Positions 8,421 through 64,000 of a DNA stretch of 64,000 nucleotides are shown in pieces; the stretch's first letter is position 1; each line of letters opens with the position of its first letter. The stretch is from Raja brachyura (Eukaryota), in assembly GCA_963514005.1 (NCBI GenBank), contig OY740807.1, positions 14,136,001 through 14,200,000 of the forward strand, in the 5' to 3' direction. The notes below the pieces were generated by a model, which made no database searches, had not been told where the DNA came from, and saw nothing but the letters and a program-made list of their open reading frames with translations. The position numbers and the translations under genes were made by a program.

Positions 8421-8489
8421 TAGAATATATTCCACGGTGACATCAATCAAATTTGGCCACACTCCATGAAGGATGTTTCGCATCTGAAG

Positions 8490-8725: not shown

Positions 8726-8739
8726 ATAACCACAAGGGA

Positions 8740-28398: not shown

Positions 28399-28437
28399 CT
28401 TTCTTCTTTAGGATGTCCTAAAACACATTACAATCAC

Positions 28438-32890: not shown

Positions 32891-33096
32891 AATCAGAGAA
32901 AAGAAGGGGAAGAGCCATGGGCGAGAGGGGGGTATCATTGCGGAGGGGAGGAGGAGCCAGCAAGGGGGACCAGAGGGATAGTGGCTGGAATTGGCGGTGC
33001 GATGGGGACGCACAGTGGGTGCTGGTCGCTGGTTGCTCTCCTCTGCCTGGATTAGAGTCCCCTTTCTGTTTGGTGACATCGGCGTCATCTCCGACT

Positions 33097-33228
33097 CTGG
33101 GCTGGGCTCGGTCTCCCATGCTGGGCTGGGCTAGGTCTCCCATGCTGGGCTGGGCTAGGTCTCCCATGCTGGGCTGGGCTAGGTCTCCCATGCTGGGCTG
33201 GGCAGGGTCTCTGAAACTGGGTTGGGTC
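33097..33228 (+). repeat. 24-bp minisatellite (ctgggctgggctaggtctcccatg), about 5.5 copies
   Basis: Units start at 33097, 33121, 33145 and 33169, with a diverged unit at 33193. Confidence 0.95.
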
Positions 33229-33700
33229 TTCGACGTTGGGCTGCTCGGCGCTAGGCTGCTTCGGGTCCCTCCGAAAATTGTGTCCGGTTGGAAACTTCCG
33301 CCAGCCAACCTCAGCTCCAGTAAAGACACGATGGCGAAGGAAGGGGCGGACCGTCCCGGTGAGTGACAGGGGAAGAATCTGGGCAGCACTGCACGGCAGG
33401 AGTAGAGATCGATCTGCGCACGAGTGGGTTTTAAGATTTTTAAAACCTCGCTAACTTTTACGACATTCAACCGATCAGAACGAAACTTGGTGCAATCACA
33501 GCAGAGGAGGACGGTGAATGAACTGGCGAAAAATCATAGCGCTATCGTGAACCGTTTTTGCGCAAATAGAGAGACCGCACAAACTGGAAGATAACAAGAT
33601 CCGAGTTTTAGTTACGTATAATAAAATAATAATAAATTAATACAAAATAATAAAATAACATAATATATAATAATAATAGATATATATATATTATATAATG

Positions 33701-38050: not shown

Positions 38051-38590
38051 TTGGAGAAGTGGACCTGTGTCATAAGCAGTTCTTCAGCTGAGTGCCTATC
38101 ATTAATGTCTTTGTAAAATAAATAACACATTATATCAAAGTGTTGTGGCCAACAATGGATTCAAAGAAAAACCAGGAGAAATATCTTTATCTGCAAAGTA
38201 GTAAAAATGAAAACATCTGTGGTTGAGTTGAATAGCATGGTGACAGTTAAGGGAATGAATTGAAGGAGATTCTGACAATATTGGTTAAGTTCAGGGGAAG
38301 CTTCCATGCTACTGTAGAACAGATGGGTTGAAGTTACTACTGTGCTGCAATTACAATTGTATTTAGTTTGTATAATCAACACATATCTCTGATACTTGAT
38401 AGAATATAGATTAATCTTTCATCTTTATGCTGCTCAACATTCCTGAATGTGGTTTTGTTCCAACTGAAGAATATCATTGTCAATCTCAGAGGCAGGAGAT
38501 GTTTAACATAAATACATTCTGAAAGAATTTGAAGCGAGTTTCACAAATATGATTAGGAAAAACTTAACATGGTTCTGAAATTGGCTAAGT

Positions 38591-38860
38591 TAGAAACATA
38601 GAAACATAGAAATTAGGTGCAGGAATAGGCCATTCGGCCCTTCGAGCCTGCACCGCCATTCAATATGATCATGGCTGATCATCCAACTCAGTATCCCGTA
38701 CCTGCCTTCTCTCCATACCCTCTAATCCCCTTATCCACAAGGGCCACATCTAACTCCCTCTTAAATATATCCAATGAACTGGCCTCAACTACCCTCTGTG
38801 GCAGAGAGTTCCAGAGAGCCACCACTCTCTGTGTGAAAAAATTCCTTCTCATCTCGGTTG
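38591..38860 (-). mobile_element. Young CR1 3' fragment
   Basis: Near-identical to 27729-28000. Confidence 0.9.
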
Positions 38861-40902: not shown

Positions 40903-41599
40903 TTAACAGTTGGATTGTATATCTCCTGAGCTATTGGGTCTTCTAAAATTGTCTTGTGAACAATGTGGTGTGCTGGACTCGCAAGAGTTATTTTTGTTCA
41001 CGTTAGTGAATGGCCGAATATCAAAATCGTTCTACCGTGATGTTCAAATTTAACAAGCAGATTCAATAGAATCCTTCAAACGGGTATTAGATGTTTAGAT
41101 GGGTTCAAAAGTCTTGTCGGGAATGTGGGGCGAAACCACCGGATTGGAACTAATTGGCGAACTCTTTACACCTACACAATGTGCCGAGACCATTCTTTTA
41201 ACGTACATTCGTCTTTCTATTTTATTTAAGAATTTTGTTGTAAGCTCATTCTTCTGAACATGTAACTCAGATATGTTGCTCCGTGTCGCCTCAAATAGGG
41301 CCACCGTTTACTATAATAAAGCTGCACGTCTGTCTTTTTATTTTGTTTCTAATCATTTGATAAGGATATAGATATATAAGCAGGTAGAGAGCACGATATG
41401 TTATTATTTAAAACAAAATAAGGAGCATTAAATAAAGATTAGAACATCCCCATACGATGAGGGGGAAAGCTTAATAATATATTCATTTGATAAACTTTTA
41501 AATTATTACGTTTTGAAATATTTCTGTGAAGGAATTTGAGGCTTTAACTTCAAGATTTTTGTGATAAAACTTATTGTGCGTGGAAATTTTTAAAGCTCC

Positions 41600-41876
41600 G
41601 GCACGGTAAACGGACGCAGCGGTAGAGATGCTGCCTTGCAGCGCCAGGGACCCGGGTTCGATCCTGACTGCGGGTGTTTGTCTGTCCGATGTTTGTACGT
41701 TATCCCCGTGACCTGTGTGGGTTTTCCACGGGGGCTCCGGTTTTCTCCCACACTCCAACGAATTGCAGTTTTGTAGGTTAATTGGCTCGGTATCATTGTA
41801 AATTGTCCCTAGTGTGTGTAGGATAGTGTTAATGTGCGAGGTCGGTGCGTACGCTGTATTTTTAAACTAAACTAAA
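41600..41876 (+). mobile_element. HE1-type V-SINE with 3' internal deletion
   Basis: B box ggttcgatcc at 41655-41664; V-core; (TAAAC)n tail; CpGs retained. Confidence 0.9.
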
Positions 41877-42054
41877 TTCCGAGCAATTGTGTCAAGGAAC
41901 GTCAATACACTAAACCTCAATAAACTGTGTCAAGCACCCATCATTGCCACTGAATAACCGAATCCTTGGCCATTGGTGACAATAGCCTCATAATTGTGAA
42001 GTGATGTATAGATTGGATTTATAGATATAGAGATTTATAGAAGTGTTGTATAGA

Positions 42055-42272
42055 TAGCGTCATACAGCACAGAAACAGGCCGTTCGGCCCAATTTACCCA
42101 TGCTGACCAAGCTGCCCCGTCTACGCTCGTTCCACTTGTCCTTGTTTGGCCCATCTCCCTCGAAGCATTTCCTGTCCATGTACCTGTCCAAATATATGTT
42201 AAGTATTGTTATAGTATCTGCTTCAACTTCCTCCTCTGGCAACTCATTCTATATATCCATTACCCTCTGTGT
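42055..42272 (-). mobile_element. CR1 LINE 3' end
   Basis: ORF 42060-42242 PEEEVEADTITILNIYLDRYMDRK. Confidence 0.8.
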
Positions 42273-44229
42273 TAAAAATAATTACAGAAAAAGCAAAGTT
42301 CTGCAAATGCTGCATATTTGGAACAAAATCAGAAAGTGTGCGCACGGCGGGCCACACGACAAAGAACGACGTAGGAACTGGCCCTTCCGCACAAAATGCT
42401 TGTGCGGAGCAAGATATCAAGTTATATTAACATCCCTCCATTCCCCGCATATCCATGTGCCTATGTAGAAGCCTCTTTAAACGCCACTATCCTATCTGTC
42501 TCCACCACAACCCCTGGCAGCGGGGTTCACGGCAACCACTGATCTTTGTGTTAAAAAACATATATACAAATATCGGAGAACTCCTGGCTTTAACTTTGTG
42601 AAACGTTGCAGCTAACTTGCCCCAAAACACATAGACGGAGGAAAGAAAGTTGCTGCGCGGGCCAGTGTGTGTTTCCAGCTGTTTCTTTCTATTGCTCCGG
42701 GTTCCCTGCACTTGCTTGTTTACTTGTGATTAAGACGATAAGCATATATCATCCTTTTTTGACACAACCTCCCTAAACCAAATGAAAGTTAAAGGTACAT
42801 TTGTTTTGCGTCTGTATCGCAACTTCAGCTCTTTTGTTTTTCCAGTTGGTTTTGCACTTGGCAGTGATGTCCAGTTGTTGGTATAAATCACCCTCACTCG
42901 GGACGAATGAGAAAACGATTGCTCTGGGAGGCACAGACCCTTGGTGTGGTACAAAGTGTAACTCCCATTTCGGACCATGCTAAATGCCCCACCCCTCACC
43001 CGCCCCACCCCCACCCTAAACCCCAACAACCTTCCTTCGGACCTCCCGGCAATTTTAATACTTACAGTTCACTGAAATGTTTGGACAGAACTGCCTGCAC
43101 ACTCTAAACATTTGGAAGATTTTATTACTGTGGAGAAACTCCTCTGATGTGTATCTGTGGCAGAACTGTGTCTCAGACGGAGCGTAGAAGGGTCTGCCTG
43201 GTTGGAAACCCCCAATAACGAGCCTAGATAGTAAAGGAGGTATAAACTGGTCTGGCAGTGGATAATAAATGGGTGGTCTTTGAAAGCCAGTTGGGAAAAT
43301 ACTGGAGACAATCTAAGCACTCGTCCGAAAAATACATGAAGAAGGCAAGTCTCTCCAGGAATTACTGGATGTACATATTAAAAAGAATACAGATAATGCC
43401 CACCGCACAATCAACTGTCCGCCCATTGTTAGATAGGAGATCGCATTATCATTGTAAACGTTAACACGATGCGATCGGCAACTATTGTGGTGTTGACTTT
43501 TAAATAACCATCTCCTTCTCCCCGGTTACACGTTCAAACAATGTAAAACGCTGACTGTGAATAGTGGCGACAATAGAAGGAGATCGGCACATAGGGAACA
43601 GCAGACGCTGGAATCCCGGGTAAAACACAACGTTCTAGAGTAAATGGAAATAGGGAATTATATTAAACTATATTATGTTAAATTGTTTCCTCTTATTTCG
43701 CTCAGGCCTTCTGAAGGAAAGGCGAGTGAGAAACACAGTATGTAAGACCCCTTTACCCGTAAAGAACTGGCTCAAGAAGATTACCAGCCATGGCCGCTGA
43801 AACTGAAGAAGCAGCGTTCAAGACAGTGTGTAGAACCTAGAATCGTGCATCAGGAGCACACAGAAGCCCCGTGGAAGCGAAACAGAGCATAAACTCACAG
43901 AATACCACGTCTGGGAACAGCCTATGGTCCCCACGTTAGCCTCAGGAGTCCCCACCAAACAGGAGTGATTCTCAGTCAGAAAAAAAGTTCTGAATTGTAG
44001 AAACAAAGAACTGCATATGGTAATTTATACCAAATATAGGTACAAAATACTGGAGTAATCCCAGCACTTTATGTCGATATTTGATCCGATTAGTTTGAAG
44101 ATCAGCGAAAATTAATATCAGACACGTTGGACCCCATATATTGCAAAGAACACTCATTAAAACGTAACTGCGTTGGTTAAAATTATCCTATGCTGGAAAT
44201 ATGTTCCGGAAAATATATAAACATTTTAA

Positions 44230-45425
44230 ATGTGTAAAATGGATCCTTAGAAATATCTGATAAGGAATAATATAAAAATAAACGAGACTGTTCGGCATAT
44301 GGTAGACGACCGGAATGGTCCGCATCGCGTAGTTTCCAGAAGTTCTCAAAGTTGGACAGGGGCATTATCCAGCACTGTTTCAAAAAGCGCTGGCCCAATA
44401 AATGTAGAGTAACTCCATCAATTGTTGTAAAATCTAATTTGGCCGCGTAACTTGGTATGGGAACAGAACGCGCTGATGGGATCGGAGCGAGCGAGTGGCG
44501 ACATTGATTAGTTAACATAGAGTGGGAATTAATTAGTCATGCAGATATGCCAAGGTGTAAGAAATGGCGAGTTGCAATGATGGGTTGCAGTTATTTTACT
44601 TAATATCAATTGCAAATGAGCAACGCTAACGGATTACACCAGCGACGACACAAAGCCAAGCGGGCGAGCGGATGTTGAGGAGGATGGAAATATGACATAA
44701 ATTGATAAGCGATCGTGTGTACCAATGTTGCATCGCGGGAACATGCAGAATTCACCAATTTGGTATAAAGAAGAGAACATTAGAATAGTTTAAAGATAGT
44801 TAGTTCAGTGGCATTTGTCTGCCCTTGTGCACAAATCATAGGAGGTTAAGGCGCAGGTAAAGCAAGGTATCAGACAGGTAATTGGATGGCTAATCATCAA
44901 TGTGTCAGGCATGCAACAGACCTACTGCAATTGGACATTATTTTGGTTTAGCCGGACATGGTCTGAAGCATTGCTTGGCCCTCTTCGCTGATGAAGTACC
45001 CCAAATGTGTGCAACAAACCTTCTGTAAACTATTACCTCCATGGAAAGGACTGCCCTGTGATGATGATACTCGTTTGAGTTTAGAAGAATAGATTATCTC
45101 GGTGAAATGTATAAACTTCAGAGAGCGTTACTTGGTGGGCGACGAGGGTCTCTGGCTGGAGATTGAAGAACCTGGCCCATACGCCGCCGGTGAGGCAGGG
45201 AACGCAAAGAAATCCTTCACGTAAATGTTTGAGAATTGCCTACGACTCAGTCGGGAATGAGATCCCGTATACTCAAGACTGAGATAGATGGATTTGCGTT
45301 CCGGACCGGAACGCTGAGATTGGCAATGGGGATGACAAAGTGCCGATGGCTTGAAGATTCAGCTAACAACATAATGGGTTGTGGGAATGTGGGAACTAAA
45401 TCGGCCTGATACTGTTTCCTAAATA
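44230..45425 (+). mobile_element. Heavily diverged CR1 RT and 3' end
   Basis: gcgacgacacaaagc (DDTK), cccttgtgcacaaatca, gagtttagaagaatagattatctcggtgaaatgtataaa remnants in collinear order. Confidence 0.55.
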
Positions 45426-45937
45426 GGGATTGTTCACTTCCTTGAGCAAGCTCGGCCATTTAATGAGTTCGTAGCTGATTTCATGTCAGCATTTTGGTTG
45501 CACAACCTTTACTTGTTTTGCCTAACGAAAACGTATCAACATTACAATTGAACGTCGATACATAATAAACTCACTGAACAGGATGTCCCAGACACCTGAA
45601 ATATTATCTGCCATGAACTTCGTGTGGCTGTAACTCCACGCGTTCATGTTTCGATTAAGCGAGAAATTGTTTCTGATGTATGATGTGCAATCTCACAACT
45701 ATGAAAATAAAACACCCTGTAACATATATTTTGAGAAGTAGTTTCGAAGACATATTTTGACACAGAACGTCCTCCAATGTCAAGGCCACACGCAAATCCT
45801 CCCATGAAATCAGCCGCCGATTTCCCAAACAATCGTGTCAGCAGCCTAATTTGAACTTCCTTCGGGAAATCCAACCAAACTCGGGCCAGAGTAAACACCG
45901 ATCATTAGGTATCTGGGGGGAACTATATAAAACATTA

Positions 45938-46069
45938 AAGATAGACACAAAATGCTGGAGTAACTCAGCGAGACAGCAGCATCTCTGGAAAGAAGAGTCC
46001 CGCTGAGCCACGCCAGCATCTTGTGTCTATCTTCGGTGTCAACCAGCATCTGTAGTTCCTTCCGACACA
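45938..46069. mobile_element. Fold-back Penelope-like pLTR element lacking the hammerhead core
   Basis: aagatagacacaaaatgctggagtaactcagcgagac ... gtcccgctgagccacgccagcatcttgtgtctatctt. Confidence 0.85.
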
Positions 46070-47114
46070 GAAAAAACCATTAGCCCCCATAGGATGGAAC
46101 TTTCTATTATGCACAATATTGAACATTTGTTTGCAACTTGCAGGCGTTTGCAGTCTCGATACTGGCTGGTTCTGTTCACGATATCTAGCATATAAATCAA
46201 TAATCGATTATAAATTACCTTGAATTAAGTATATTTCTGGGACCGTTACGTCACGCAAAGGCCTCCTTGTTCATTTCTCATCTCCCTGCCCCCTCGCTTT
46301 ATCAGCTTGTCAGTTTTAGCTTCTGTATAATGTGACCTATTTGTACCTGGATTCTATCATCGGAATGTCATATGACCATTTGCTGCAAAACATTGCCATC
46401 ACCTTTTCTGTCGCTTGTTTCTTTCCTCCTCTGCACCGATTATCGCCTTTTTATTTCGCCTTAATACTGCCCACGTGTTCAAGCCGAGACACTTAAGGGG
46501 CACAAAACCTGTGCCCAGAGTTTTCAGCAACCTCTAACACATTGAGTGAAGCTCAACACCATTAGAAATTTCACGACAGTGGGAGACGAAAGAGCTCCAC
46601 GCAATTTGTGCGAGGCGCTGCAATTATTCACTAGAGAGCATTCAATGGGAAGAAGTTGCTAACTTCAAGAATAAACCGAGAATTGAAAGAGACAACCCAA
46701 ACCTTCATGTACCCACACACAAAAAAAATAGGTTTGATGTATAGATATGTGGGTAAGCCGGAAAGAAACTGGAATCGAAAATCGCACGACCCTCTAGATT
46801 CGGTTAGGTCTTTTTTTTTGTCAAAACTCACTGATTTTATAGTCAACTTTTCATTAAAATACTTTGACCTTGTTATCACTGACAAGTGACACAACCATTT
46901 ACAGACAGGGACCTCGCTCCCATTTATCCGTGTGTAGATGGTTTTGGTTCTAAGACCCTCGTAAGCGAAAAAATATTTCTAACAGAAAAATACATGTGTA
47001 AATTAGAAGAAGGCTTAAATTAAGTTAAAATTATCAGAGGTAACTCTAAATGTATTTTGGGTTGATTTTCGAGCTTCAATACACAGGAAAACAAATTTGG
47101 CAGAATCGCAACAA

Positions 47115-47364
47115 NNNNNNNNNNNNNNNNNNNNNNNNNNNNNNNNNNNNNNNNNNNNNNNNNNNNNNNNNNNNNNNNNNNNNNNNNNNNNNNNNNNNNN
47201 NNNNNNNNNNNNNNNNNNNNNNNNNNNNNNNNNNNNNNNNNNNNNNNNNNNNNNNNNNNNNNNNNNNNNNNNNNNNNNNNNNNNNNNNNNNNNNNNNNNN
47301 NNNNNNNNNNNNNNNNNNNNNNNNNNNNNNNNNNNNNNNNNNNNNNNNNNNNNNNNNNNNNNNN
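47115..47364. other. Assembly gap
   Basis: Run of N. Confidence 1.
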
Positions 47365-49762
47365 AATTTTATTTCCTGCTTGGTTTGAAAGCGAAAGATT
47401 AAGATTAATTAAAAGTGTGTTATATTTGTTGTGTTTTATTTAGATTTATACATTAGGCCCGTTACCTGCAGTTGTGGCGGGTTCTCCTCACATCCCGCCC
47501 TCTCCATTCAATATTTCATTAATGCCAAAAAAAAAGTTCCTTGTGGTTTACTTTCGCACATCGATCACATTATCCTCGCGTCACATTAGATGCTTTTATG
47601 TTGGGTCCGTTGACCAATTTACCAATCGCACATGGAGCGATGGAACTGGGCATATCTCCACTTTAAAAAAAAATCAATTTTACTTAGTTTTGGCTGTTCC
47701 TCTTCGAATGGCTCTATAATTATAACGTTCCCCCCAAATAACGGTCTCGTTAAACTCTTAATGGCAATTATATGTCTCCGATTGTTTGTTGTAATCCTGT
47801 TTTGAACAATGGAATATGGTTAGAAAAATAATGGTTTTTAAAGTTACTATCGTCCGGAACATCCACGGTAATTCTCCTTCATAGTTGGTGGTGAGGGTGG
47901 GAGGGTGTGGGGGGGTTGTTGGGTGGGGGAGAAATCCTAGCAGAGTAAATGCAAACATCCCTAACAGCGTTGATGTAATTACTCAACACAGCTAAATATT
48001 CTGCTTGGTTATCCACATTTTGTTGAATAACCCAATTTAACGATATCACTATGGGTCTATCTTACCCACATATCTAAACGTTGAGGATCTATTCCTCGGC
48101 GGGATCCCAGAGTAAGGATTTGCAACCCCTGGATTCTCGCTCTGTCTGGGTTGCACATTACTTTGGTAAGGTACCAATATACACAACTCAATGTGTCAAA
48201 TGTATAGGGCGAGGAGTCAGCAATAATTTAAACTCGCAACCTTCAAATAACAACTTGGAATGTGCTTGATGGCGCAGGACATTGATTTATATCTCAAAGA
48301 ATAAATGTCCAGACTAAAGTGGCGAGATGTAGATCTCTTAGATTCGCTGTCAAGCACTTGCTGTTTTAGAACAACGGACATTAAATAGAACAAAAACACC
48401 TTTATTTTTGTTCTCTGCAGACACTCCGTGTTGCTTCTGCACACTCAGATAGACATTTACAAAATGTTTTGCAATAATTAAGTTTACTACTGGTCGTCAG
48501 GATGTCGTATACATTTCCAGACGGAGTCACAGATTCGAAACCTTCAAATCCTGCTGTATCTACCTTGACACATGGCGTGCATGCAGGAAGTCTTCTCTGA
48601 GCATGTCAGACTGAAACACCCCAACAACATTAACCAAGTACATAAACAATGCATTTAAAAATATACTCTTAAAATAAAACATTCAAACACTCTTGCGCCG
48701 AGTTAAATAGATTCCTTTCATAAACGTCCGGTGCCAGTTTTAGCGAATGCGGCTCAGCATTTTCTCTTACTTTTTTCCAATTATTGAGTTGTCTTTATTG
48801 ACCTCACCGTTGCATTCATATCTCACTAGATATATACATTGATGTCTCTGTGTGATTGTGCGCGCACAATCTACAATAGAAAGTATCAGGCGCCAAGCAA
48901 TTTATATCCATTACCAGGTGTGGATTCAAAGTCGAAGCTATCGAAGGCTTTAACTGTAACATCACATTACTTAACAACGTTAGGTAATGGTTAATGGCAG
49001 AGAGAATTCAGATTAATATTTGAGACCAATGAAATGGGATGGAACTAGTGTTCCGTGGTTTGCCAGAATATATAATGAAGATATTCTTGGTTTTTGACAA
49101 TTAACATTCACAAAGCGGGAATTAACATACCCTGAACAAATTAAAGCAGGAAATCAGGAGGTGAGTATTGATATAATAATTACCATTTGCCAATATAATG
49201 CAGATTAATAAATATGTGTGGAACGATCAACGTGGATTATCCATGCACTCGACTAAAATGAACAGAAGTCCGAATTATTTGATTAGATTAGGTAAAATCT
49301 GACTCTGAGATTTTCTGTAATCTGTCAAAATCATTTTTATTCACTGGTTGGCGAAAATAAACATTGCTGGAAAACGTACAAATCCAACGTTCAATTTGGA
49401 ACTTCGACGTTTTGGTTTAAATGGGAAAGTTGAACCAAAGGTTGAAAGGCAGACAAGGGGAGACAAGTTTTCTTGTAAAACACTTCCACTCCTAGGCCGA
49501 TGTGACCAGACAAGCAAGAGTGAGATAATCATAAAATATACAGAAAGGTTATAGTCCACAGTAGGGTCGCGCAGTGACCGAGAGACAGTTAATATTCTGG
49601 TCCGCCAGATCTAGCAAAAACTGTCTCCTCTAAGGTGTTGTACAATTAGGAATTAAACTCTGCACAACTTCAAACTCAAGGGCCTCCTCCTTTGGACAGA
49701 AGCGTTTCAATGCGAAAACTCATTTCCCTTTCTGCAATCGACATCTGACAGAACGAGGGAGA

Positions 49763-49769
<7 letters not shown>

Positions 49770-49806
<37 letters not shown>
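49770..49806 (+). repeat. (GA)n microsatellite
   Basis: Pure GA dinucleotide run. Confidence 0.97.
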
Positions 49807-49811
<5 letters not shown>

Positions 49812-50369
49812 ACGGGCCTTTTCAATTACGATGCAACAGCCCGGTTATAGATTCTAACGGATCTGTATTTTAATTTCATCATACTCCCTTTGCATTGCAT
49901 TTCTATTTAAACAACCGTCACGGATGGTCACTTACAACAAACTGAACCTCGACTTCTATCCGAATCGATCAGCGGTTCGCCATGCGAAGTTTTTCAATAT
50001 GCAGCAAATCCAAATTATTTTAAGGGGGGGCCCCAGTAGTTCCACTGGTGAAAGTACGACCCTGGACCAAAGTCTCGGAATGCACGGCCTCGGGCGAGCC
50101 CAGTAAAAGATATCCCAGGTCTTGCAACCAAGTTGATTTCTGCAGAATTCCCCCGATTGAGAGCGTTCCACTCCCCAACTGCTCCTGGAATAATTGGGGG
50201 GAGGGGGGGGGGGGGATGTCTGATGTATATCTTTATATTATCAATGTAGATAAAGCGAAGTTGAAGGTTATCGGATGATTCTCACGGTGAACCTGCTGGA
50301 TGCTGCAGAATCTCTCCGTTGCTCTGGTGCTCGTTAATGTTCTGAGTACAGGGCCTACTTGCCTTAGCG

Positions 50370-50402
50370 CTGACGTCGACCTGTCAATCAGAACCCGCCT
50401 CC
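50370..50402 (-). promoter_or_regulatory. Clustered CRE-like, PBX-MEIS/PREP and GC-box-like motifs; candidate promoter
   Basis: TGACGTC at 50371-50377, CTGTCAATCA (TGATTGACAG on minus) at 50381-50390, and cccgcctcc adjacent, in CpG-rich context. Confidence 0.4.
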
Positions 50403-51069
50403 TTGCACACGTACAGTCGACTCCAGCACTCTTTTGCATTCAAGTCTCATTGTAACAGACTACGCAAAAAAAAAATCTTTCAGCGAAGTTCAACAATAAT
50501 AAACGGCCCCAGACATCGATCATCGTCAGCTCCTTAACCCACAAGCTCCTACAAGAGGACCAAATAGCATTCTGAGCAGCCGACCAGTCCCTTTTCACTT
50601 CAAAGCAAACGACGTTCCAAAAAAAAAAAAAATCACCATGTGTCCATCTAACTAATTCCACAGAATATCCTGAAGCCCATCCATAACTTTCTAAGCGTGC
50701 CAGTTACTCTGTTCCACAGACTGCAACGTGAACACTGGATCTTAATAACCCTTTCTTGCAGAAGTCCCAAATAAAATGAAACCCAGCGAGTTTACTGAAG
50801 AACGGTCTGCATTGTATATTCATTCATACTTGAAGAATCGCAGACTTTTCAAATAAACTTTAAACAAATTTTACTTCATGTGTGTAAATTCCACAAAGCG
50901 ATTGTTACATTTTTGACTTCTCACCAACGTATAACGTTCGCCAATCTCGGGAAATGACTGGTTTTCCCAGTGCACTAGTGCCCAGATTTAATAGATAACC
51001 CAGTACAAACGCAATAAACGGTGTTTGTGCTTACTCCCTTCACCGATGTCAACTCCTCACTGCTACCAG

Positions 51070-51195
51070 ATAAAGGGTCCTGACCCGAAACGTTGCCTGC
51101 CCAATGCCCTCCACAGATGCTGCCTGACCCGCTGAGTTCCTCCGGTACTTTGTGTTTTGGTCAAGATTCCAACATCTGCAGTCTCTTGAGTCCCC
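51070..51195 (+). mobile_element. Penelope-like pLTR fragment (CUGA lost)
   Basis: aagggtcctgacccgaaacgttgcc...gatgctgcctgacccgctgagttcctcc. Confidence 0.8.
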
Positions 51196-54100
51196 ACATC
51201 TGCCCATCGTCACCCTACAAACCGCGCGCAACACATAATGCAGCACTCCAAACGCAATTGTCCCAGGAGCTTGCTGTCAGCCCCTGTATAAATCAACACT
51301 CACTTTCAGTGCAAATCTACAGCCTGAAGTAGCCTATTTATATAAAATCAGCAGCAATCTCCGACCACAATCACACTGGCCAACACAATCTCGTAGATGT
51401 AAATGTACAAAACAAACACAACATCACAGTTCCCTGGCTCTTACAAGTCATCCCAACAATCGACACGCGTGTATATTCATGCTGCTGTACCCCCGAAATA
51501 AATAACATTACAACAGGTATTCATCTCCCTCTTCGACTAAATCCACTTCGTGCTCGGACATTCCTCATGCAAAGAAGTCCAAGTCAAGCAACAATTAATA
51601 TCGATCACTTGCGTCAGCACATTGCCACTATGTGAAGCAGGCCTTAGATTAAACCTCCTTGCGAGCTGCAATGATTTCCATTGACTTTCAGCATTGAAGT
51701 GTGATAAACAGCATAGAACAACGATGTATGATTATGTCGGAGGTTATAATCGCAGTTTATGAAATTGCTGTTCTAAACAGTCCAGTGTTGCAATAGGTTC
51801 TGGAAATTCGGGAGACAGGCAATGCCCATGAAAACTGTTCACTTTAATTGTTGTTTCAATATAATAAAGGGTTCATTTTAGAATAGTCAACGAAAAGAAA
51901 ACACGTACATTCATGTCAAAGATTGAACGAAATGCATCGGAGTTGCTTTCCTAATATTTCGCAGTGTTTTGTAAGTTAGCCATCCAAAATGGAAACGTAT
52001 TTCTATTTTATTGGTCCTTTCTTTTCCTGTACCAATCTAGGGTCTGGTCTGGCTAGTTTGAATCTGACTTTTCCATGTGCTTTCAGTAACCTCGATAATG
52101 AGAAAGGCGGAAATCGTTTACCTGGGGAATCATGATGAGGAAATTAGAGCATTGCGGATTATTTGAGATGGTCGTAAAACGGCGGGACAAAGAAACAACA
52201 AGGAGCCACTGTCTGGGACCCATTAGGGTGTTTCAACGGGTTCCCCGGCGCACATTAGGCTGCCAACTGGACCCTACAGTACAGACAACCATCACCAAAA
52301 GCAATCACCACCGACCAACCACCCCACCCCCATCCGCCCCAAAAAAGTTGCGCGATTTTACCAGGATCTGCGTTTGGCCTGAGAGCTCCTGTCTATCCTG
52401 GCCCAACCTCGCTGCTAAACTACAGGGAGCATTCAGAGGGACAACCGAAAATTCCAGGGTGCCTCCGAAAGAGAAATATTGAAATGTACCGAAGGGGTTG
52501 GAGAACTGGAAAATTCGTCACCGCTGAACTCACTCCAGGCGGTTTTAAAGTTTATTCCAGTGAGTTTTTTTCTATTGTTATTTTCCCATGAAAGTCGTGT
52601 GTTGCTCCTGATAAAAAAATTTAAAGTTTTTATTTTTAACTGCTAGCGGGCATACACAAATATGCGTGTTTCCAATACAAACAGCTCAATTTAGTGTCAT
52701 CAGATAAAAGCAACATTTCCCACGCAAACCTCCAGTTTATATGAGAAGGGAGGAACGTGATGAACTCTCAACAATGAGAGATTGTATACAAATAGTCAAG
52801 TTTATAATCTCATTTCTCGCCATCATTCAGATGTCGGTTTAAGCAATGTAGTGGCTGCTTCATGAGTTGTGGGTGAAGACTGAGAGCTAATCTGATTTAG
52901 AATGGAACTGTGGATAGACAAGGTTAAATTCTCATTCGAGACACCGTCTTAATCCACCATGCCCAATATCCTGCTCAGCGGTTTAACACGAGCAATGCAT
53001 AAACTGTGGGCGCGGAGTTAATTCTCTACCCCGCGATTCTATAAATTTAAAGGCAGACAAGTTGGCGATTATTCTCAAGTAACTGTTCTCTACACCACTA
53101 CAATTGGTACTCTGTTCATTCTGTGTTGGGCCCTGGCTGCCTTTGTGGGATTGGACCGTTATTCAGCTTACATTTTTTTCTCTTTCCCAAACCAATTGAA
53201 CTAATGGCCTCAAAGTGTTTTCACTTTATCCAAATGTATATCTCCGCAAGCGTCCTCCCTGCCCGCCCTCTGGTAAAGAGGAGCAAATATTGAATATGAA
53301 AAAATTTAACTATAAATGTGAAATGTTTTTAAAGCCAAGTCATCAGCCGGCGGAATATGAAAACAGTAAGCCCAATACTAATTACCAATGGAGTTAACGT
53401 TTCCAAAAAACGTTTAACCAGTTACATCTAAGGCTGGGCGATTTGTATGAATTGCTTTAGTTTTCAATACAAGGACGATTTGAAATGATTTGCGCGTTGA
53501 TTATTAATAATGACATTTTAAGGTTTATTCTAATGAATCAAGATTCATAGCTAAATGTTTCCTATTCACCGACCACCTCAAAGTTCCAAAGACAAGAGTA
53601 GGTGGTTTTCATCTAGTCCAAAACTATGTTGCTAAAATATTATAGGTTTGAGAATTATTCAGTTCTGACCATTGTCGTACAGAGAAAACGTGCTGGTGAG
53701 CTTGCGTTTCCCACTCGGATATTAATGTTGCCACAGGAAAGGAGTGTACATTGATATAATAACTGCGAATTGTGTAGTCACAGCTTGTCCGTCCTTTGCT
53801 GTGACAACATTCAAAGGATAAAAAAAAATAGAATTAAAGGCATCAATTGAATCTACAATTAACGAATAAAAGATGCCCCGAAATTTCTCCTTTACTTCAT
53901 TCACTCGCTTCCATGAATTAGAAACATCATTCTAAGCTTGATGATATGACAGATTGTTAATGACGTTGAATTAGAATTAGAGACATAATAACGGGGCGGG
54001 GAAAATAATGCAAGCGTTATGACATTTTTTACTAAGTTTCTTTGAAACATCACGACGGTAACGGAAGAAAGTAACGATAATTCCTAGGCCGAAAATGTGT

Positions 54101-56189
54101 GCTTTTGGTGCCTAATTAAATGCCAGATAAAGACAACGGAGTTTTAGTTCAGAGAAATAAATTGGAGTTCAACCTACTCGTGAAGCATCTTAGCAAATAT
54201 CAGGAGTCAACTTCAGTCGACTGGACAATATTCCCATTTTTCGATCATTGCCTTTGTAACGTTGACTATTATCGTTCGAAATGAGCCTTCTGATATTGGC
54301 CAACAACTTAATTAATAATTAGAAATAGGCGAGCGAAGGATTAACCGAGAATGGACGGATTAGCCCGGAATACAACTCCGCTCACGGGCATTAGAGGTTT
54401 GTTGCCCTGTTTCTTAAGGGTCGGTTAACCTTCGGGTCCATTCTGGAGATACCGCTCCTTGTTCGCACCGACCGATACTGATATTTATCCAGGCCACAAT
54501 GCACAGATTTCACGTGTATATAAATTGTGAAGTTACACTAATTAATCCTCATCCCCTGAATTATTACTAAGGCATTCAGTACAGCGAATTTTAACTTTTA
54601 GAATGGTTAAATATCACTATAATAGCCGTCGTATCTCTCTGATTTCGATGAATGTATAAGAGCAGAGTTTAGCTTATTAGATCCCTTAATTGGTGAATTT
54701 TGGGGGGAAATAAAATGTAGGACGCAGAGAAGCTGTGCCGTTGTCCTCGGTTAAAGAACTGCGTTTGAGATATAGGCGGCTGGAATCCCCCAAAACTCAA
54801 AATACGTTTAAATTAAGGTCAATTATTCCAGCAAATGCGCACTTGAGTGTTGCGGGATGCACTTTAATTAGGCTCGGTTCCCAATATAACCACTAATTGC
54901 CTGTGATTATTTAAGTAAACTTCATTCAAAGGGGCGGCAATCGACGGGTAACGCGGTGTCACTGTTCAACAGCACACGGTCAGGGACACATTCCCTCTCC
55001 AAGGCCAGGACAACTTGCTGTTGTTTTGTCGCACCGTGGCCACGCGGCATGTAGATGCTGTGGAGCTGTGTGGGGACGTGCAGGAAAGTAGTGAGCAAAA
55101 GCGTCAGGAAAATTCATTTCAGCCAAGAATGATTGGGAGCGAGTTCGAATTAGGCCTGGTTGTTCATATTCTAAATCCTGCAATTCACATTTCTCCTAGA
55201 AAGACGAAATAATATCTACTTCTTTATGTGTAGCAGGCATGAAAATTCAAGATTCCCCAATCCACAGAATCCAGCTATGTTCGGGGGACAGTTTGCTAAC
55301 GGTCCGAGGTCTTGCTAAACTTAAATTGCTAAAGACTTTTATTTGAGTTTATTTTTATTTGACAATTCTTATTTTAAAGTTCTCTATTATTCTCTCAAAT
55401 TAACTAGCGTGTGACTAATGTGGAAGACGCGTTTTTTTTCTCTAAACTGTTCAATCCACACCCAAAGTTTATTTTTCAAAAATGTATCTCCCAGAACTAA
55501 ACATTAATAGATCCACACACGTCAGTCAACAGTCACCTCTGCTCCAATCATCACTCCTGACTTTCCCCCTACGCCCATTCGCCATCGCTAATGGAGGAAA
55601 TCGGAATAAACGTACCCTTCCTCGGCGTTGAATTTTTAAATTTGGACAAGAATCGTGTTTACAACCGGGGATTGTTTTTAGGCTGGTCTCGGCAGTCCTC
55701 CCGCCTCACCCCGCCCCCGCCAAATTTATAAAATGTCCTTTACATTCCTGTACCCATTGAAAGAAAATGATTTAATGATATTGCTGAAATCTATTATCGA
55801 CGACCCTCCCGGCATAAATCATCCAGATGTGAGAAAATTGAACGCCTGGCCCTGTATTGAAGCAAGTTTATTCCACGGTAACAGGTCAAGTGCATTTATA
55901 CATTTTTATATCACACTGGTTTTAGGTGTAATAAATAATCATGATAAACAAGTCTCCGTCTACGTACACTGAACCTTTAGGTGATTTACTATTTTAGTCG
56001 AGCAGGATAGTGGGAGGGGGGCGAAAGTATGTTTTGATTTTTAAACCATTCAACTTCAGTATGAAATGATCTGCAATAGAAAGTTTTGGGACAGATTGGA
56101 GTGGCGGCCTTATTGCAATTGTTACACGGTTGTCACATGGCAGCTTAGAGTCCAGTGAATGGGTTTTTAATCGAGATTTTCCAAAACGT

Positions 56190-56288
56190 CAAAAAAGACA
56201 CATAGTACTGGAGTAACACGGTGGGCCGGGCAGCATCTTTGGAGAACATGGATAGGTGACGTTGCGGATCAAGACCCTGCTACAGACA
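56190..56288 (-). mobile_element. Penelope-like pLTR fragment
   Basis: gacacatagtactggagtaac...ggataggtgacgttgcggatcaagaccctgctacagac. Confidence 0.7.
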
Positions 56289-59200
56289 GATTCCAACAAG
56301 CCGGTGGCGACTAGGATTCCGACTTAACGTAACGTAGAATCTGCCCGAATCAGGGAACCCGGGGACGGTGCCGAAAACCCCACGATTCAGGAACTCGGGA
56401 ACCTTTTTGCCATTCCTTCCGCTAAAAATATAATTCTAATGGGACATGACTGTTAATCGCCGCATCATTTACATTAACAAAAACAAATGATAAATTAACC
56501 AAAGTCCCATTTGCACACCAGCACACCAAAACATGTGGACATTTATGAAACCTACAGATTCTCCCCCAAATCGGTTCCATGGCATCTTATCTTATTTCAT
56601 AGGAGTATTTTGTTTCTTAGAAAATTGGGCACGTGATGGCTAGGATTCTTTCTGTACCTGAATGTAACTACTGAACAACAGAGGAGAAACTGTGATCAAG
56701 CCCAACACTAAACTCAAAATCCCACCATTCACTTTAGAAAATACCAATCGACGTCAGTGCACACAGAAAAAAAAACAATAGTGTTGCCCAACTCTTACCC
56801 ACTCTCTCTGAAAGGGCACATTCAGCTTGGATGCTGTGTTTGTTTGTATTGTTTCACTATAAAATTCTTACAGATACAGTAACAGTCATCCAATATAAAC
56901 ACTCCCACAACTTGAGTGTTTCACTTTTACCGCCCCCGCTCACGGTTCTCGCTTCCGAACTCATTGCCACTTCCCTTCTTTCTGCCTGTTAGTCGGTGTC
57001 CTGTGTGCTGCCACTTTCTTCCAGTGACATCCTGCACCCAACCCCCACCTCTCACTGGTCTCCCTCCTATTTATCATCCTCTGTCATCGCTGTCAGACTT
57101 CCAACCAACCAGACAATGATCCCAAAGTTAGTTGGATACTTCAGATGGAAAATCTCGTTCTTTGATCTCCTGTGTTCATTTTAAACGCCGCGTGCATTGA
57201 GAATTAGTTAGAACTTGTCAGCTTAACGCCGGAAAGTATCATTTCAATCCAGATATTAATATCGGGCCATTCGGGTTGTATTCAATTAAATTAAAGCTCG
57301 TTTGCTGGCTGCTGACATTCTCAGTGCGGCCTGTCGGTTAGACCAATAAACTGGAAAACAATTCTTCAAATTAAACCTGAATTAAAAAACTACTCTGCTT
57401 TCTACATTTACGCTTGCAAGTTTGATTTTTTTTTAAACCCCTCTAGTTTTTTGAGAAAGTTCTTACCTAACGCGTACTGTCTTTGCAAATAGATAATCCA
57501 GCGTTTCTTGGCTAGGTTGATGAGCAGTCCAATGCCGTGGTAAATGGTTCTTAAACAGAGGGCCTCGTTCCTTCAAAAGGAATATGCGTAGCAGCCAGGG
57601 GTTGGGAGCTTCGCTGAGTTTAACACTGAATTTTATCTGCGGAGACTCCCCTGTCACGTGACGCAAAAATCGACCTTACTGGAATTTAATGAAACGAGTA
57701 TTTGGAAAGGGGGGGCGGGGGGGGGGGGGGCTTTCAAAGAGAGTGTAGCGCGAAACCTTTCAGCAAAATCAACCCCTTTAATAAAATCTCTGAGAGCGGG
57801 AGATGGCTGAACAAATGTATTTCCAGCCCTTCTGTTTTTTTTTATTTTAGACTTCCAGCAGTTAAAAAAAAAACCGTTCATACTAACGATGACAATTCTA
57901 ATAAGTTTATTGGGAATTTTACAGAACTAAAAAAAGTTGTGACATTTATTTTCAATGACTGTTATATGAAATCCATTTAGACTATTTCTGGGAAGAGGGT
58001 CTAACAAATAAGCAGCGAACCAGGCAAAGATATTTGGGGGCAACAATTAAATGGAGGCAGAAGTTCGACCTGAGTATATTTTTAATTTCCTTCTTCTCCC
58101 TTTAATTAAGAGCGAGCCCTGGGTTGTGCAACCCACCGCTCGCATCACTGGGGTGCTTCACTGTACAAAAGCTGAATGACGTGGCTAAGTAGTCTCACAC
58201 CTACCGACCGACCCCACCTTTTCCAATCCCCTAAAAATGTGCCACGGCCAGAAACCTCACTCACCTGTCAAACCAAGGAAACTCCCGCTGTGTCCCCAAC
58301 AGAAATCCGTCCACTTAGTTTTGCTTTAAGTTTGAAAGAGATAATTAGTATCAGAAGGGATTTGAAACATCGCACCCAATTAGGAGCTGATAATACATAA
58401 TAAACAATTGGTCAATTCAAGAGCCATATTTATAATCGGAAAGAGATTTTATTAAACATGTGCAATCCGAAATTTGTGGTAAAATTATTAATTCAATTGA
58501 GTACAATAGAACATTTTACTATCAGGTGTTAATTAAAAGCATTATTTACTGAGTTTAAATGTGTATATGTGGACTCAAAGCTCAGGAGGAAAATTATACT
58601 TTAATCGTGTTATTCCAATGTCTCTCTGCTTCCTAATTCTGTGCTCAGGGGCAGATTTCGACTTTATTTTAATATCTCGGATGGATGATGGAGAGCGAGG
58701 ACTGTTCAATTTCACCGGTTATTCAGACATTTTCCAATATTATGGGTTTTTTTTAATTGATGTAAATGTCCTGAAAGAAACAACCCCCCCCCCCCCCGTC
58801 ATCGCGATGCCCCTTGCACGTTTTCTTCGGCTTTTTACTCAAACATTTCATTTCAATTCCGTACGAATACATTGTCACCATTCTCTTGCATTAATAAGTA
58901 TTTGCTTGTATAACAAAATTTTGTTTATGTGCAATTACAGTATTTTATAGTTTGTATTAAATAGGACTCCATAGCCAATTCATGATCTGATTTCACCGTG
59001 TCGTAAAACTAGTTACTTCTTAATTGCTTTCTATATTTATGTCCACGATAAGAAAGGCTTTCTTATTTACTGCTGGGCCCGATGCTGCCGGACCAGTGCC
59101 CTGTTCATTCCATGGACCCTGCTGAATAAGCTGAAACTATACTGAGACAGCTACTATATGAGTGCTTTAGAAAGTTGTTTTCTAATAGTGGTGCCTCACG

Positions 59201-59476
59201 TCCATTCAAGGGATCACTGGCCGGTTGACTCAGAATATTAAAAAAAATACGTATACGTGGAAGCATATTCCCGATAAATCAGATTGTATTCCTTGATGGT
59301 AAAATTATATAATGAAAACATTGTATTATCGAGTCGACTAATAGACCATTCAAATTCATTGGCTGTTATAATAACAGAATATATTTTTTTAAATTGTGAA
59401 TAAAATGTATTTGGATATTTTAGATTATTGCTGTGCTGTTTGCACGCTTTCTAGATGCAGGATCTGTGATGTTAAC

Positions 59477-59610
59477 AGCAAAACACAAAATGCTGAAGAA
59501 ACTCAGTGGGTCAGGCAGCTGAATTAAGATGCTGCCTGACATGATGAGTTCCTCCAGCACTTTGTGTTTTGGTCGAGATTCTGCGGCATCTGCAGTTCCT
59601 TGCTTCTCCG
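59477..59610. mobile_element. Fold-back Penelope-like pLTR element
   Basis: caaaacacaaaatgctg...tcaggcagc-tgaattaagat-gctgcctga...cagcactttgtgttttg. Confidence 0.8.
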
Positions 59611-60134
59611 TGCAAAGTTTGATGTGAAGGCTATAATGTGGCGATGTCAAAACATTCGCAATTGGATTAAAGTTGCTTAGTATTTGGAGTGGGAGCCCCA
59701 TTGAGAGAGTGAGCGAGCGAACCGTGTCGGTAACCACATCCCCGTGCTGCGGCACAAGACAAACCCGGGGATGAAGAAGCCACTGCGACAGGGCTGACAC
59801 CTCGGCCGCATATCGAGGGCAAGTTCACCGTGCAAGAGTTATTTTTCCCACTAGCAATCGATGAACGGAGGATTAAGCCGAAGGTGTTGTTTGTTTTAAA
59901 AATGTTCAAGCAAGCGTGGGGAATGAGGAATACGCAACTTTAGGGGATCGACTAAATTCTCACAAGTCAACCAGAGCACAAGAGGGGGAGCAGTCGGTCG
60001 GCCTGAGGTGGATCAGCAATGAGGTACAGTTGCGCGCTTGAACGAGTGCACGCCATTTATCATCAAACACTCCAGGTGACTGGGAATGGAGGCAAAGATA
60101 GACCATTCACATAGATTTTTGGACCAATGTTGAA

Positions 60135-60265
60135 AAAAAATGCTGGAGGAACTCAGGGGTCAGGCAGCATCCGTGGAGGGAATGTGCAAACGACGTTTGG
60201 GTCGGGACCCTTCTTCAGACAGATAGGAGTATGGGGGGAGGGGAAGCTGGTATAGGGGAGGGGGA
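60135..60265 (-). mobile_element. Penelope-like pLTR fragment, hammerhead missing G12
   Basis: Reverse complement gtctgaagaagggtcccgacccaaacgtcg. Confidence 0.8.
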
Positions 60266-60594
60266 GATGACCTTTAAGGTTCCATTTTAGGATTTGATTG
60301 GAAAACCTTATCATGAGGTTAATGCCAATTGTATGATAAAGTATTCCATTTGCTGCAATCGTCCAAAACAATATAGCAATGCTTTCTTCAATTGCCATTA
60401 GCTGAGGTTTTGGGACCGTTTTAAGATTCAAATTCAAAACTATTCGCCATTTGATTCTGGTGAAAATAGAACGTAGAATTTGTAAAATATGTTAAGGTAA
60501 ATATATATTTAAACTAGCAGCCGGAGAACAAGCGATGAATAAGCCTCTGGGACGCCAACATGTAAACTTACATTCTCCGATAAATCACACGGAG

Positions 60595-60905
60595 TTTTCA
60601 CTGGTGGAAGAGTCACTAAGAAGGGGGCACAGTTACACATGAAGCGTTGGTCATTTATAACTGATGTACCTAGATTTTTTTTCACCCTCTGGGTAATGAA
60701 TATCCGGGATTCTCAGCCCCAGAGGGTTGATCAGGCGCGTCATTAGATACACAAGACAGATATATACATCATATTTTTTAATCGTGGATTTAAATTCTGG
60801 GGAACCAGATGAGCAGAGGCCAGTGCAAATCAGTCATGGGCATATAAAATGGTGCGGCATGCTTGAGGGGTTTTCTAGCCCACTCCAGCTCCTATTTTCG
60901 TATGC
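60595..60905 (+). mobile_element. Decayed CR1 3' end
   Basis: actaagaagggggcacagtt...tttttcaccctctgggtaatgaatatccgggattctcagccccagag. Confidence 0.55.
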
Positions 60906-61334
60906 TCTTGTGATCTTGAGTGTCACATAGGATATCTCCATTGCGAATAAAAATGCAGGTACGTCAATTAAATCTGTAGATTACAGAGTGAAACATGTGT
61001 CTTGCAGCGAGAACATGCATCTGCAGAATGGAACCTCATTAAAAGCTCATTACTCTAGCTCATTATTAAACGTTCACTGCTAGGAACTTTCTCCGAACTA
61101 ATCGCGTAGCTGAGTTTAAACCTCCATAATGTGGCCCTTATAATAACAGCCCCAGGAGTTTGCACTAACCAGACCTAGGCCCACAATGAAATGCATACAC
61201 TATATCGTAAGATTCATTATTCAGATAATGGGTTCATTGGTAACGTTGATATTTTAGAGAGGGGCGTCTCAGTGGTGAATGAATGAAAACGAGCCCTGAT
61301 ACCACCGATATAAAACGCCGCAGCCAACTTGACA

Positions 61335-61545
61335 TAAAAACAGAAAAGGCTGAAAACACTCAGCTGGTCAGGCCGCATGTGTGGGAAGGAAAACGGCCGA
61401 CATTTCAGGTCGAAGAGTCTAATAAATTATGTTTGCATTTTTGATTTTCATGGAAGTTTGTACACCCGAAACGTTGATCGTTTCTCCCTCCACGGGTACT
61501 GCCTGACCTGCTAAGTAATTCCGGTATTTTCTGGTTTTGTTTCAG
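61335..61545. mobile_element. Older fold-back Penelope-like pLTR pair
   Basis: Minus arm 61335-61420; plus arm from cccgaaacgttga at about 61465. Confidence 0.6.
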
Positions 61546-62267
61546 AAGTAAATTCGCAGCATCAATTGAATGTAAACAAGGCTCATCCCGAGAATCTGGC
61601 CGTGGTCTCCTTACTTTGGATACGAGATTCCCAGTTTTCAGGGAAGCTCGCGGGCGCTTTCAATTTGCAAAAGCGATGACCCCTTAAAACCAGCCTCCAG
61701 TCAGCCTGCTTCGAGATAGACGGGACATACAGGTTACAATCCCAGCGTTTCTACGCCGCACCCCATGACAAATTGTCACCCGTATAAAAAACCGTATTGT
61801 AATTGAAATAAGTTAAAATCAAGGATGGTTCGCTGACGTAAAATATCTGCGGATGCTGGAAACCTAAATTAATTATCATCTCCTAATTTCGGTACCCCCT
61901 TCAGGACGGGCAATTTCTGAGGAAGTGGTTGAGCGGTGGGGGTGTTAAGGAGGCAAGATTTTCGACATTTGCAGTTTCTTCTGTCTCCAAGACTCGAGGC
62001 CAGTGTCTGGGAAAACGGCGTGGACCCGCCCCCCCCCCCCCCCCCCCCCCTGTTTCCATCGAATGATATAAAATAATGACAACACAGGAAAAGGTCATCG
62101 CCTCTATATCCAAGTTCACAGCTCTTGGCTCGCGGTTCTGTGATCACTCAAGTTTACTTTAAACAGTTTTACAATGCCGCAGAGTCCATCTTCCTATCAG
62201 GTAGCGAGGTCCAGAATCCCAACAACCTCCGGGTGAAAGGATTCTCATCTCTAATGGAGAAAAGGTA

Positions 62268-62590
62268 ATGTTTAATTGTCCTTTACACTGACGATTGAAC
62301 AATTACATTCTTACATTCTGCACCTTTACAGGCCCATTAGCGTAATAATACAACAAAATACATATACAATAAATCAATAATGCCATAAATCAATAATCAG
62401 TAATACTGGGTGCCCAGGGCGTAATAGAGCAAAATCCCGGTACGTATTGCAACCGAAGCAAATTTCATCGGAGCTCATTGTTGCAGAGGTAAGTTTGTGC
62501 TTGGTATTGTGTGGTGTTCAGGAGCTTGTTACTGGGAAGAAGCTGTTCTTTAACCCGGAGGTCATGGTTCTCAGGCTCCCGAACTTCTAT
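62268..62590 (-). mobile_element. Rex1/Babar-like LINE 3' end
   Basis: gggaagaagctgttctttaacccggaggtcatggttctcaggctcc (reverse complement SLRTMTSGLKNSFFP). Confidence 0.65.
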
Positions 62591-62773
62591 CGTTCTACCA
62601 ATAGCGTTAAGTCTGATAACATCGTGTTGTAGGAAAGCAGAAATATAATCGGAAAGGAGCAGGAATTACTCAGAGAATCAAGTTTCAGGTCAACATTCAT
62701 TCATCAAGGGCATGCCACTGGCCTGAAACATTCCCTGAGACACAATTTGCATTCTCTTTCATCAACTTTCATC

Positions 62774-62807
62774 GGTCTGAAGAAGGGTCTGGACCCGAAA
62801 CGTCACC
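62774..62807 (+). ncRNA. Minimal type I hammerhead ribozyme motif within a Penelope-like pLTR (62774-62858)
   Basis: GGT-CTGAAGA-A-GGGTC-TG-GACCC-GAAA-CG-TC|ACC: stem I GGT/ACC, stem II GGGTC/GACCC, GUC cleavage triplet. Confidence 0.7.
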
Positions 62808-63624
62808 CGTTCCTTCTCTCCGGAGATGCTGCCTGTCCCGCTGAGTTACTCCAGCATGTTTCATTCTCCACAAACGCTGCCGGATTCTGTGAGAATCTCT
62901 ACCATTTTATCCGCGCTGGGGACATTGCACGGCGCGCCCTTGTTTTTTTTTTTGCAATAATTTGAACACTTACTTCCACTAACAAATGTACATGAACTAT
63001 TTTTCTGCAATCGAATTATACAACGCTATGGGAGGCCATTCGGTCGTTAGTATTCCGTCTCTTTGAACGCGCTGACCAATTGATTCTCTGCTCTTGCCAA
63101 ATGTATACAAATCCCACCTCAAAGTTCCGGTTGAATCTGATTCTATCATCTCTTTAGGCAGACGCTTTCAAATCGCAGCAACACGCAGAGTATAATAAAA
63201 CCACACTTATCTCCCCCTTTGTCTGTTTTCCAGTAAACTCCGTCTGCTCCGGTTACCGACTCACCAGGCACATGGGACCGATTTAGTTATCCTACGCGAA
63301 CTTGGAATATTATTGTTAACCACACAAAGAGGGTAAAGTCCTATTTAGCTGGAGATAACGCCATTCACTACCTCTTGACCCATAATTGTGGCTCGATGTG
63401 CCATTCGAAGTATATTTTGTGGTTTGTTGCGGAGAAAAAAGAAACGATACAATCAATTAGCACAGAGCAAGATCCAATAATTAACAAAATGATAGGGGCC
63501 TGGCTGCTGGATCGACGTTAAACAGGACTCTGTGTACAATAGATTTTATATTTTCATTGAAGGGATGTGGGTTTTGCAGGCTGAGACAACATGTAATTAC
63601 CCACCACATAAAGGAACACAGCGT

Positions 63625-63736
63625 CGCATCTGTAGAGGGAATGGACAGGCGACGTTTTGTGTTCGGACCCTTCTTAAGCTCTTCCAGCACTTTGTGTATT
63701 TCTCAAAATTCCACCCTCGGCAGATTCTTGTGTCTT
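63625..63736. mobile_element. Fused inverted Penelope-like pLTR fragments
   Basis: gcatctgtagagggaatggacaggcgacgttt...gacccttctt then tccagcactttgtgt. Confidence 0.7.
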
Positions 63737-63744
63737 AATGTAAA

Positions 63745-64000
63745 CAACTACAGGACTGCTTGGAGTCTGTGAACTGGGCAATGTTCAAGGACTCGGCAAC
63801 GGACCTGAATGAATACGCCACAGTCGTTACAGACTTCATAAGAAAATGTGTGGAGGACTGTGTTCCAACAACAACATTCCGAATGTTTAGGAACCAGAAG
63901 CCTTGGATGAACCACGAGATCCGCATACTGCTGAAGACCAGATCTCGGGCATTCAGGTCTGGTTACGCAGAGGTCTGTAAGAGTCCAGATAGGACGTTGA
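63745..64000 (+). mobile_element. Rex1/Babar-clade LINE ORF2 (endonuclease-RT linker), open to the window end
   Basis: Own translation, no stop before the window end: QLQDCLESVNWAMFKDSATDLNEYATVVTDFIRKCVEDCVPTTTFRMFRNQKPWMNHEIRILLKTRSRAFRSG. Confidence 0.85.

Follow-up and report, generated by a model that had tools for sequence, protein, structure and literature searches.

Minimal hammerhead ribozymes (min-HHRs) occur in the pLTRs of metazoan Penelope-like elements (PLEs), as set out by Cervera and De la Pena (2014, PMC4209133); for this and the other reports cited here, statements refer to the portions of text available to us. These motifs have a full catalytic core, an extra base between A9 and G10.1, a G10.1-C11.1 pair and a palindromic segment at 15.2-16.2 without helix III, and they are found mostly as single truncated copies. 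Helix I ranges in print from 2 to 5 bp, and compensatory changes serve as a supporting feature of the described families (PMC4209133). As monomers, min-HHRs showed no cleavage in that report, and as dimers little. In D. virilis, Penelope carries an internal promoter (PMC2377424).

Three further systems are close to the one described here. The PAc Poseidon element of Anolis (Frangieh et al. 2024, PMC11167929) is an EN+ PLE with a pLTR hammerhead near the start of its ORF; in the portion of that paper available, the hammerhead cuts only with protein and is dispensable for insertion in vitro, and no RNA-seq ends are found at its cut site. The Neptune/Nematis EN+ PLEs (Craig et al. 2021, PMC8557442) combine an RT, a CX2-5CxxC linker and, at the C-terminus, a GIY-YIG domain, and occur as partial tandems and as inverted 5'-truncated copies. 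Non-LTR retrozymes (Li et al. 2026 preprint, 10.64898/2026.07.22.740005) are pLTR-related hammerhead repeats and have been reported in one chondrichthyan. A literature search that stopped short of Repbase, subscription papers and some supplements (file 1 of PMC4209133 and that of the 2026 preprint) found no paper on the present family in sharks or skates.

Here we analyse a hammerhead motif within a window of 64,000 nucleotides (the whole stretch of DNA studied) from Raja brachyura. We consider it very probable that the motif is a real but ordinary member of the class described above, and likely inert.

The motif and its parent element

The sequence at 62774-62807 contains every core base attributed to it by the initial annotation, together with the 3-bp stem I (GGU/ACC), the extra A between A9 and G10.1, the palindrome ACGU in place of stem III and the GUC triplet, with CG at 62801-62802, U16.1 at 62803 and C17 at 62804 (Table 1). 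The predicted cut after 62804 follows from hammerhead numbering. The sequence features reported for the min-HHRs of metazoan PLEs are present: core C3-A9, G12-A15.1, U16.1 and H17, the extra nucleotide at 9/10.1, the G10.1-C11.1 pair (G62785-C62796) and the palindromic 15.2-16.2 segment without helix III. The proposed 5-bp stem II is better read as one pair shorter. Its letters (GGGTC at 62785-62789, TG at 62790-62791, GACCC at 62792-62796) would form a fifth pair only across a 2-nt loop, and ViennaRNA predicts 4 bp with a 4-nt loop, giving the fifth pair a probability of 0.00. Helix II is 4 bp here, in contrast with 7-8 bp in the Schistosoma families, while helix I, short in this copy at 3 bp and 2 bp in the family, compares with 4-5 bp in Schistosoma and 2 bp in D. 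virilis (PMC4209133, available text).

Table 1. Features at and around the hammerhead motif (window coordinates)
Feature	Position	Strand	Basis or remark
Stem I, 5' strand, GGU (GGT in DNA)	62774..62776	+	G62774 is A in the family
Core C3-A9 (62777-62783), then extra A (62784)	62777..62784	+	Sequence read; feature list of PMC4209133 (available text)
Stem II, 4 bp, 4-nt loop	62785..62796	+	ViennaRNA; G62791 is C in the family
G12-A15.1 (62797-62800), palindrome ACGU (62800-62803) for helix III, C17 (62804)	62797..62804	+	Sequence read
Stem I, 3' strand, ACC	62805..62807	+	Sequence read
5'-truncated end piece (pLTR part), Neptune/Nematis-type Penelope-like element	62770..62860	+	Sister-copy homology
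Possible target-site duplication	62747..62756 with 62859-62868	+	9/10 alike; weak, among ~2000 position pairs tried
Decayed inverted copy of the same repeat	63625..63676	-	Predicted -71 kcal/mol duplex with the stub in read-through RNA
CpG-retaining domain holding the copy	41001..64000	.	CpG o/e 0.6-1.1 per kb; genome median 0.42

Matches to the bare core alone occur in the window about as often as chance predicts, 8 against an expected 6.1. A fuller 28-nt pattern has 3 matches and none in 100 shuffles, and the full descriptor has 40 matches in 980 kb of genome, compared with 0-1 in five shuffles. The motif is not a chance match, and the excess over shuffles is repeat descent. By covariance-model score it falls outside the Rfam hammerheads: no hammerhead match at E<=10 was obtained at this copy or at four related loci, the parent included.

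The repeat is a stub of 91 bp that starts 7 nt before C3, with homology running from 62770 to about 62860. It differs from the family majority at 7 of 91 nucleotides, 2 of them at subfamily-variable sites. It is a single copy with unique flanks, which sets it apart from the non-LTR retrozymes, in which tandem monomers each carry a hammerhead (10.64898/2026.07.22.740005, available text). Its sister loci continue upstream into a GIY-YIG-type frame (Pfam E 0.07-0.14). A search with this frame returned 150 scored matches among 88,520 candidates, and among the scored matches was a tandem array on C18, in which four GIY-YIG-end matches lie 3965 bp apart with open frames of 1033 aa. In this parent the RT, a CX4CxxC linker and the GIY-YIG domain share one frame, the Pfam matches (RVT_1, E=5e-4; GIY-YIG, E=1.4e-3) being both below the curated cut-offs. 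A hammerhead lies about 230 nt past each parent stop codon and is 84% alike to the 62774 copy over 82 nt; it has the pLTR position, since the parent is a tandem element and pLTRs are formed by this tandem arrangement. The Penelope origin given in the initial annotation is borne out by this continuity, and the motif is supported as a minimal type I hammerhead of the kind reported for Penelope pLTRs. Its remark that no ORF lies nearby is true of Penelope ORFs, with no GIY-YIG or RT match in those window frames past 40 kb that were scanned.

By the definitions in the available text of PMC8557442, and as judged from the domains read here (RT, linker and GIY-YIG), the parent belongs to the EN+ Penelope-like elements and is of Neptune/Nematis type, an assignment by domain definitions; the copy at 62770 is an end stub only. 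PAc belongs to another clade, and its ORF starts at stem II, whereas in the parent the first ATG follows the predicted cut by 22 nt (PMC11167929, available text, for PAc). In the array itself, a young tandem with a period of 3965 bp (L051/L052, G000:C18:46357001-46377000), this ATG opens a 37-codon exon up to a GT donor (L051:4302-4412), and a putative GT..AG intron (L051:4413-4534) would keep the exon in frame with a 273-aa open stretch from 4535; among the 15 listed of 135 contigs, none was spliced at the putative intron. Many 5'-truncated copies elsewhere in the genome score equal to the C18 array.

Sister copies, their ends and their decay

The abundance of the repeat was estimated from 98 evenly chosen 10-kb stretches (L064-L161), a total of 980 kb of the 2.7-Gb genome. 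These hold 385 repeat pieces, compared with 0 in a reversed control, which corresponds to about 1.06 million pieces genome-wide; 27 lie within the window. Among the 229 sampled pieces that reach the 5' core, 87 have kept the core, 51 also stem II, and 34 the palindrome as well. From these 34, about 94,000 copies with intact core, stem II and palindrome are expected in the genome, against the 4,000-9,000 given for coelacanth and Xenopus with different descriptors (PMC4209133, available text). Stem I is 2 bp in the parent and in 24 of the 34 intact copies, and at least 3 bp in one; the exact pattern with the GGU/ACC stem has 1,233 matches in the genome. With so many equals, the view of this copy as notable finds no support.

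Most of 29 close sisters, which were chosen by likeness to the 62774 copy, share G62774. A subfamily trait was nevertheless ruled out: in the same upstream context, none of the first 100 of 2,406 matches has G at -3 (96 A, 4 T), so that G62774 arose by a point change. On this comparison of sequences, the 62774 copy owes its third pair in stem I to a private A>G. Most of the 40 GGU loci that were read are truncation or fold-back junctions. An origin of GGU copies by cDNA snap-back through stem I, suggested by these 40 loci, is weak at most genome-wide (97/164 vs 63/156, OR 1.46, p=0.053), and a fifth pair is not enriched (6/25). Completion of stem I by splicing, the AG before U-1 being acceptor-like, was also rejected: copies that start at -1 have no upstream sequence in common, stem I is not convincingly extended from any donor of the parent unit, and no GT..AG joint was seen among the 15 listed of 135 contigs.

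The 5' ends of 364 copies gather just before the hammerhead, with 58 at -3..0 before C3 where 23 are expected (p=7e-10). In the random loci (L064-L161) this pile-up often consists of fold-back junctions, and it may mark an RNA start or a stop of the RT. The pile-up site has TCAGT, which we take to resemble an initiator. A footprint of cleavage in the insertion ends was looked for at +26..+28 and rejected, with 7 of 364 ends where 9.4 are expected, which excludes an excess above about 1.4% of copies. The templates were thus mostly uncut, as in PAc, where uncut RNA is the main template and ends at the cut site are likewise lacking (PMC11167929, available text). At one of the 40 loci (L179), the 51-bp inverted arm of a fold-back has as its first base the one that directly follows the predicted cut. 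Inverted pairs of the repeat, the usual PLE layout, are also present in the window at 13590-13824, 59469-59602, 61334-61534 and 4410-4835, and young-subfamily copies lie 5-11 kb past it (L057:5149-5308; L058:71-1217, minus strand), one with a GIY-YIG frame.

The expectation that the core might be no more conserved than its flanks holds in one respect and fails in another. The catalytic G12, which lies in a CpG, is A in 52 of 208 copies, the same rate as for flank CpGs (51/205, p=1.0). At non-CpG sites, on the other hand, the core differs less than the flanks (110/2101, 5.2%, vs 459/5877, 7.8%; p=6e-5), in part through ascertainment. The lower difference tells against strict neutrality; it is also what is expected from constraint on the master element combined with a profile seeded on intact cores, from which selection on the copies is not separated out. 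In the decay of the genomic copies we see no sign that the core is under selection. Covariation in stem II, whose absence the initial annotation had named as telling against its reading, was not detected, the score being 0.154 against 0.152 for shuffled data, with 182 of 500 shuffles as high (93 distinct rows, one family). The alignment comprised the 62774 copy and 95 random copies (of the 176 that were eligible, 100 were drawn and 5 then removed for large indels), and the comparison was made within the one family that the descriptor found; in this the copies differ from the families in PMC4209133 (available text), where compensatory changes are seen. In 70 of 91 rows the outer positions of stem I do not pair.

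The copy lies in a domain of high CpG retention (the genome median in Table 1 being taken from 980 one-kb bins), which continues more patchily for about 13 kb past the window, to about 77 kb. Copies inside the domain, young ones included, have kept 44 of 56 CpG sites compared with 229 of 432 outside (p=0.0003, counting sites and not independent copies). The 62774 copy has no C>T or G>A among its 7 differences, and three A>G changes create a CpG. Its core is intact likely because the stub sits in a domain of slow CpG decay. We presume the domain to be unmethylated. The whole CpG-rich domain of about 36 kb (window 41001-64000, L057 and L058:1-3000) has about 42% GC and is TAAT-rich by eye; to us it has the look of a methylation valley close to a developmental regulator.

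Three RNA or presumed-RNA contig runs, which are coded as coming from other organisms or a metagenome, leave the unique flank at 62606-62722 uncovered; one of them has a 171-nt trace at 63055-63225. In a contig from run X19, whose organism is related or identical, the insertion occupies the same position. No host Pfam domain was found in 58 frames of at least 95 aa, which yielded only RT pieces of retrotransposons and a single weak match to Cornifin, nor in 142/162 shorter/neighbouring frames, in a scan to which short exons and N stretches are invisible. No tRNA was found. The Cornifin match (E=0.007) falls in a low-complexity repeat with long open frames at 32532-33533. LINE-type retrotransposon pieces lie at 22644-24077, 27730-28399, 38589-38859 and 63738-64000, with RVT_1 matches at 23253-24077 and just beyond the window end; LINE-type copies of 270-310 bp are 97% alike.

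Predicted cleavage and competing explanations

That this solo copy is likely to cleave finds no support. Folded in contexts of 111-401 nt, stem II has a probability of 0.03-0.14 and stem I of 0.00, and helix III cannot form in the monomer; published monomers did not cleave (PMC4209133, available text). A trans double hammerhead is predicted at -10.7 kcal/mol. This is unfavourable, lying 3.8 kcal/mol above two monomer ensembles, and a non-catalytic duplex, at -27.8 kcal/mol, is better by 17 kcal/mol; these ViennaRNA values concern secondary structure alone, leaving aside tertiary contacts, Mg2+ and protein. There is no close same-strand partner: in the 94 kb examined, the nearest core-pattern copy lies about 68 kb upstream and its palindrome is broken.

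We regard it as very likely that the sequence is a 91-bp Penelope-like end fragment, in which the minimal hammerhead is inherited cargo and is probably non-cleaving. An element RT would have copied uncut RNA and halted 7 nt upstream of the core, which would then have outlasted decay inside the domain of slow CpG loss, and stem I would have gained its third pair from the A>G change. Cleavage, if it occurs in the family, would act on the element's own RNA, likely aided by an element protein or a tandem partner, and the stub has neither. Against this explanation stand the retention of all catalytic bases, a stem I one pair longer than that of the parent, a CpG-retaining domain that may be transcribed, and the lower non-CpG difference in the core (p=6e-5).

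A rival reading, which extends the idea of the initial annotation, has the stub transcribed in host RNA and occasionally cleaved at 62804, either in trans or with Penelope protein. The intact core, the palindrome and the 3-bp stem I could find some 94,000 possible partners, the family is young with open frames, the locus retains CpGs, and the anole element shows protein-assisted cleavage (PMC11167929, available text). We nevertheless hold this unlikely: the trans dimer is predicted to be unfavourable and out-competed, the nearest same-strand core-pattern copy is distant and its palindrome broken, and the stub would be drawn into pairing with the inverted copy at a distance of 0.8 kb. In addition, the minimal RNA of the anole element extends 172 nt into the ORF, whereas the stub stops 56 nt past the cut site. 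In a bolder form, the stub would be transcribed from an unmethylated regulatory domain and cut in trans at 62804, paired with RNA of one of its sister copies (~100,000) or with help from protein of the young family, leftovers of this kind being cleavage sites in host RNA genome-wide. This is highly improbable; should trans cleavage nonetheless occur, host RNA would be acted on by a very large class of repeats otherwise counted as dead.

A copy kept by the host through selection, for regulation or for RNA processing, would fit the absence of C>T and G>A changes and the insertion at the same place in the X19 contig. However, neighbouring copies in the same domain also retain their CpGs, and 34 of the 229 random core-reaching copies are equally intact; we give such a role only a very slight chance. 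A chance match, or a non-Penelope repeat such as a tandem retrozyme, could appeal to the missing Rfam match and to the chance-level count of the bare core. This reading is refuted by the sister copies that are continuous with the RT-GIY-YIG element, and it also conflicts with the descriptor count (40 vs 0-1 shuffled) and the single, non-tandem state of the copy; its probability is close to nil.

Through this locus a class reported in 2014 gains a family from cartilaginous fish; as it stands it is otherwise of little import. Two by-products are of use. The ends of the sister copies gather just before the hammerhead and not at the cut site, which constrains how the elements are copied. The young, apparently intact tandem parent (G000:C18) is a clean substrate for asking what the hammerheads of Penelope-like elements do.
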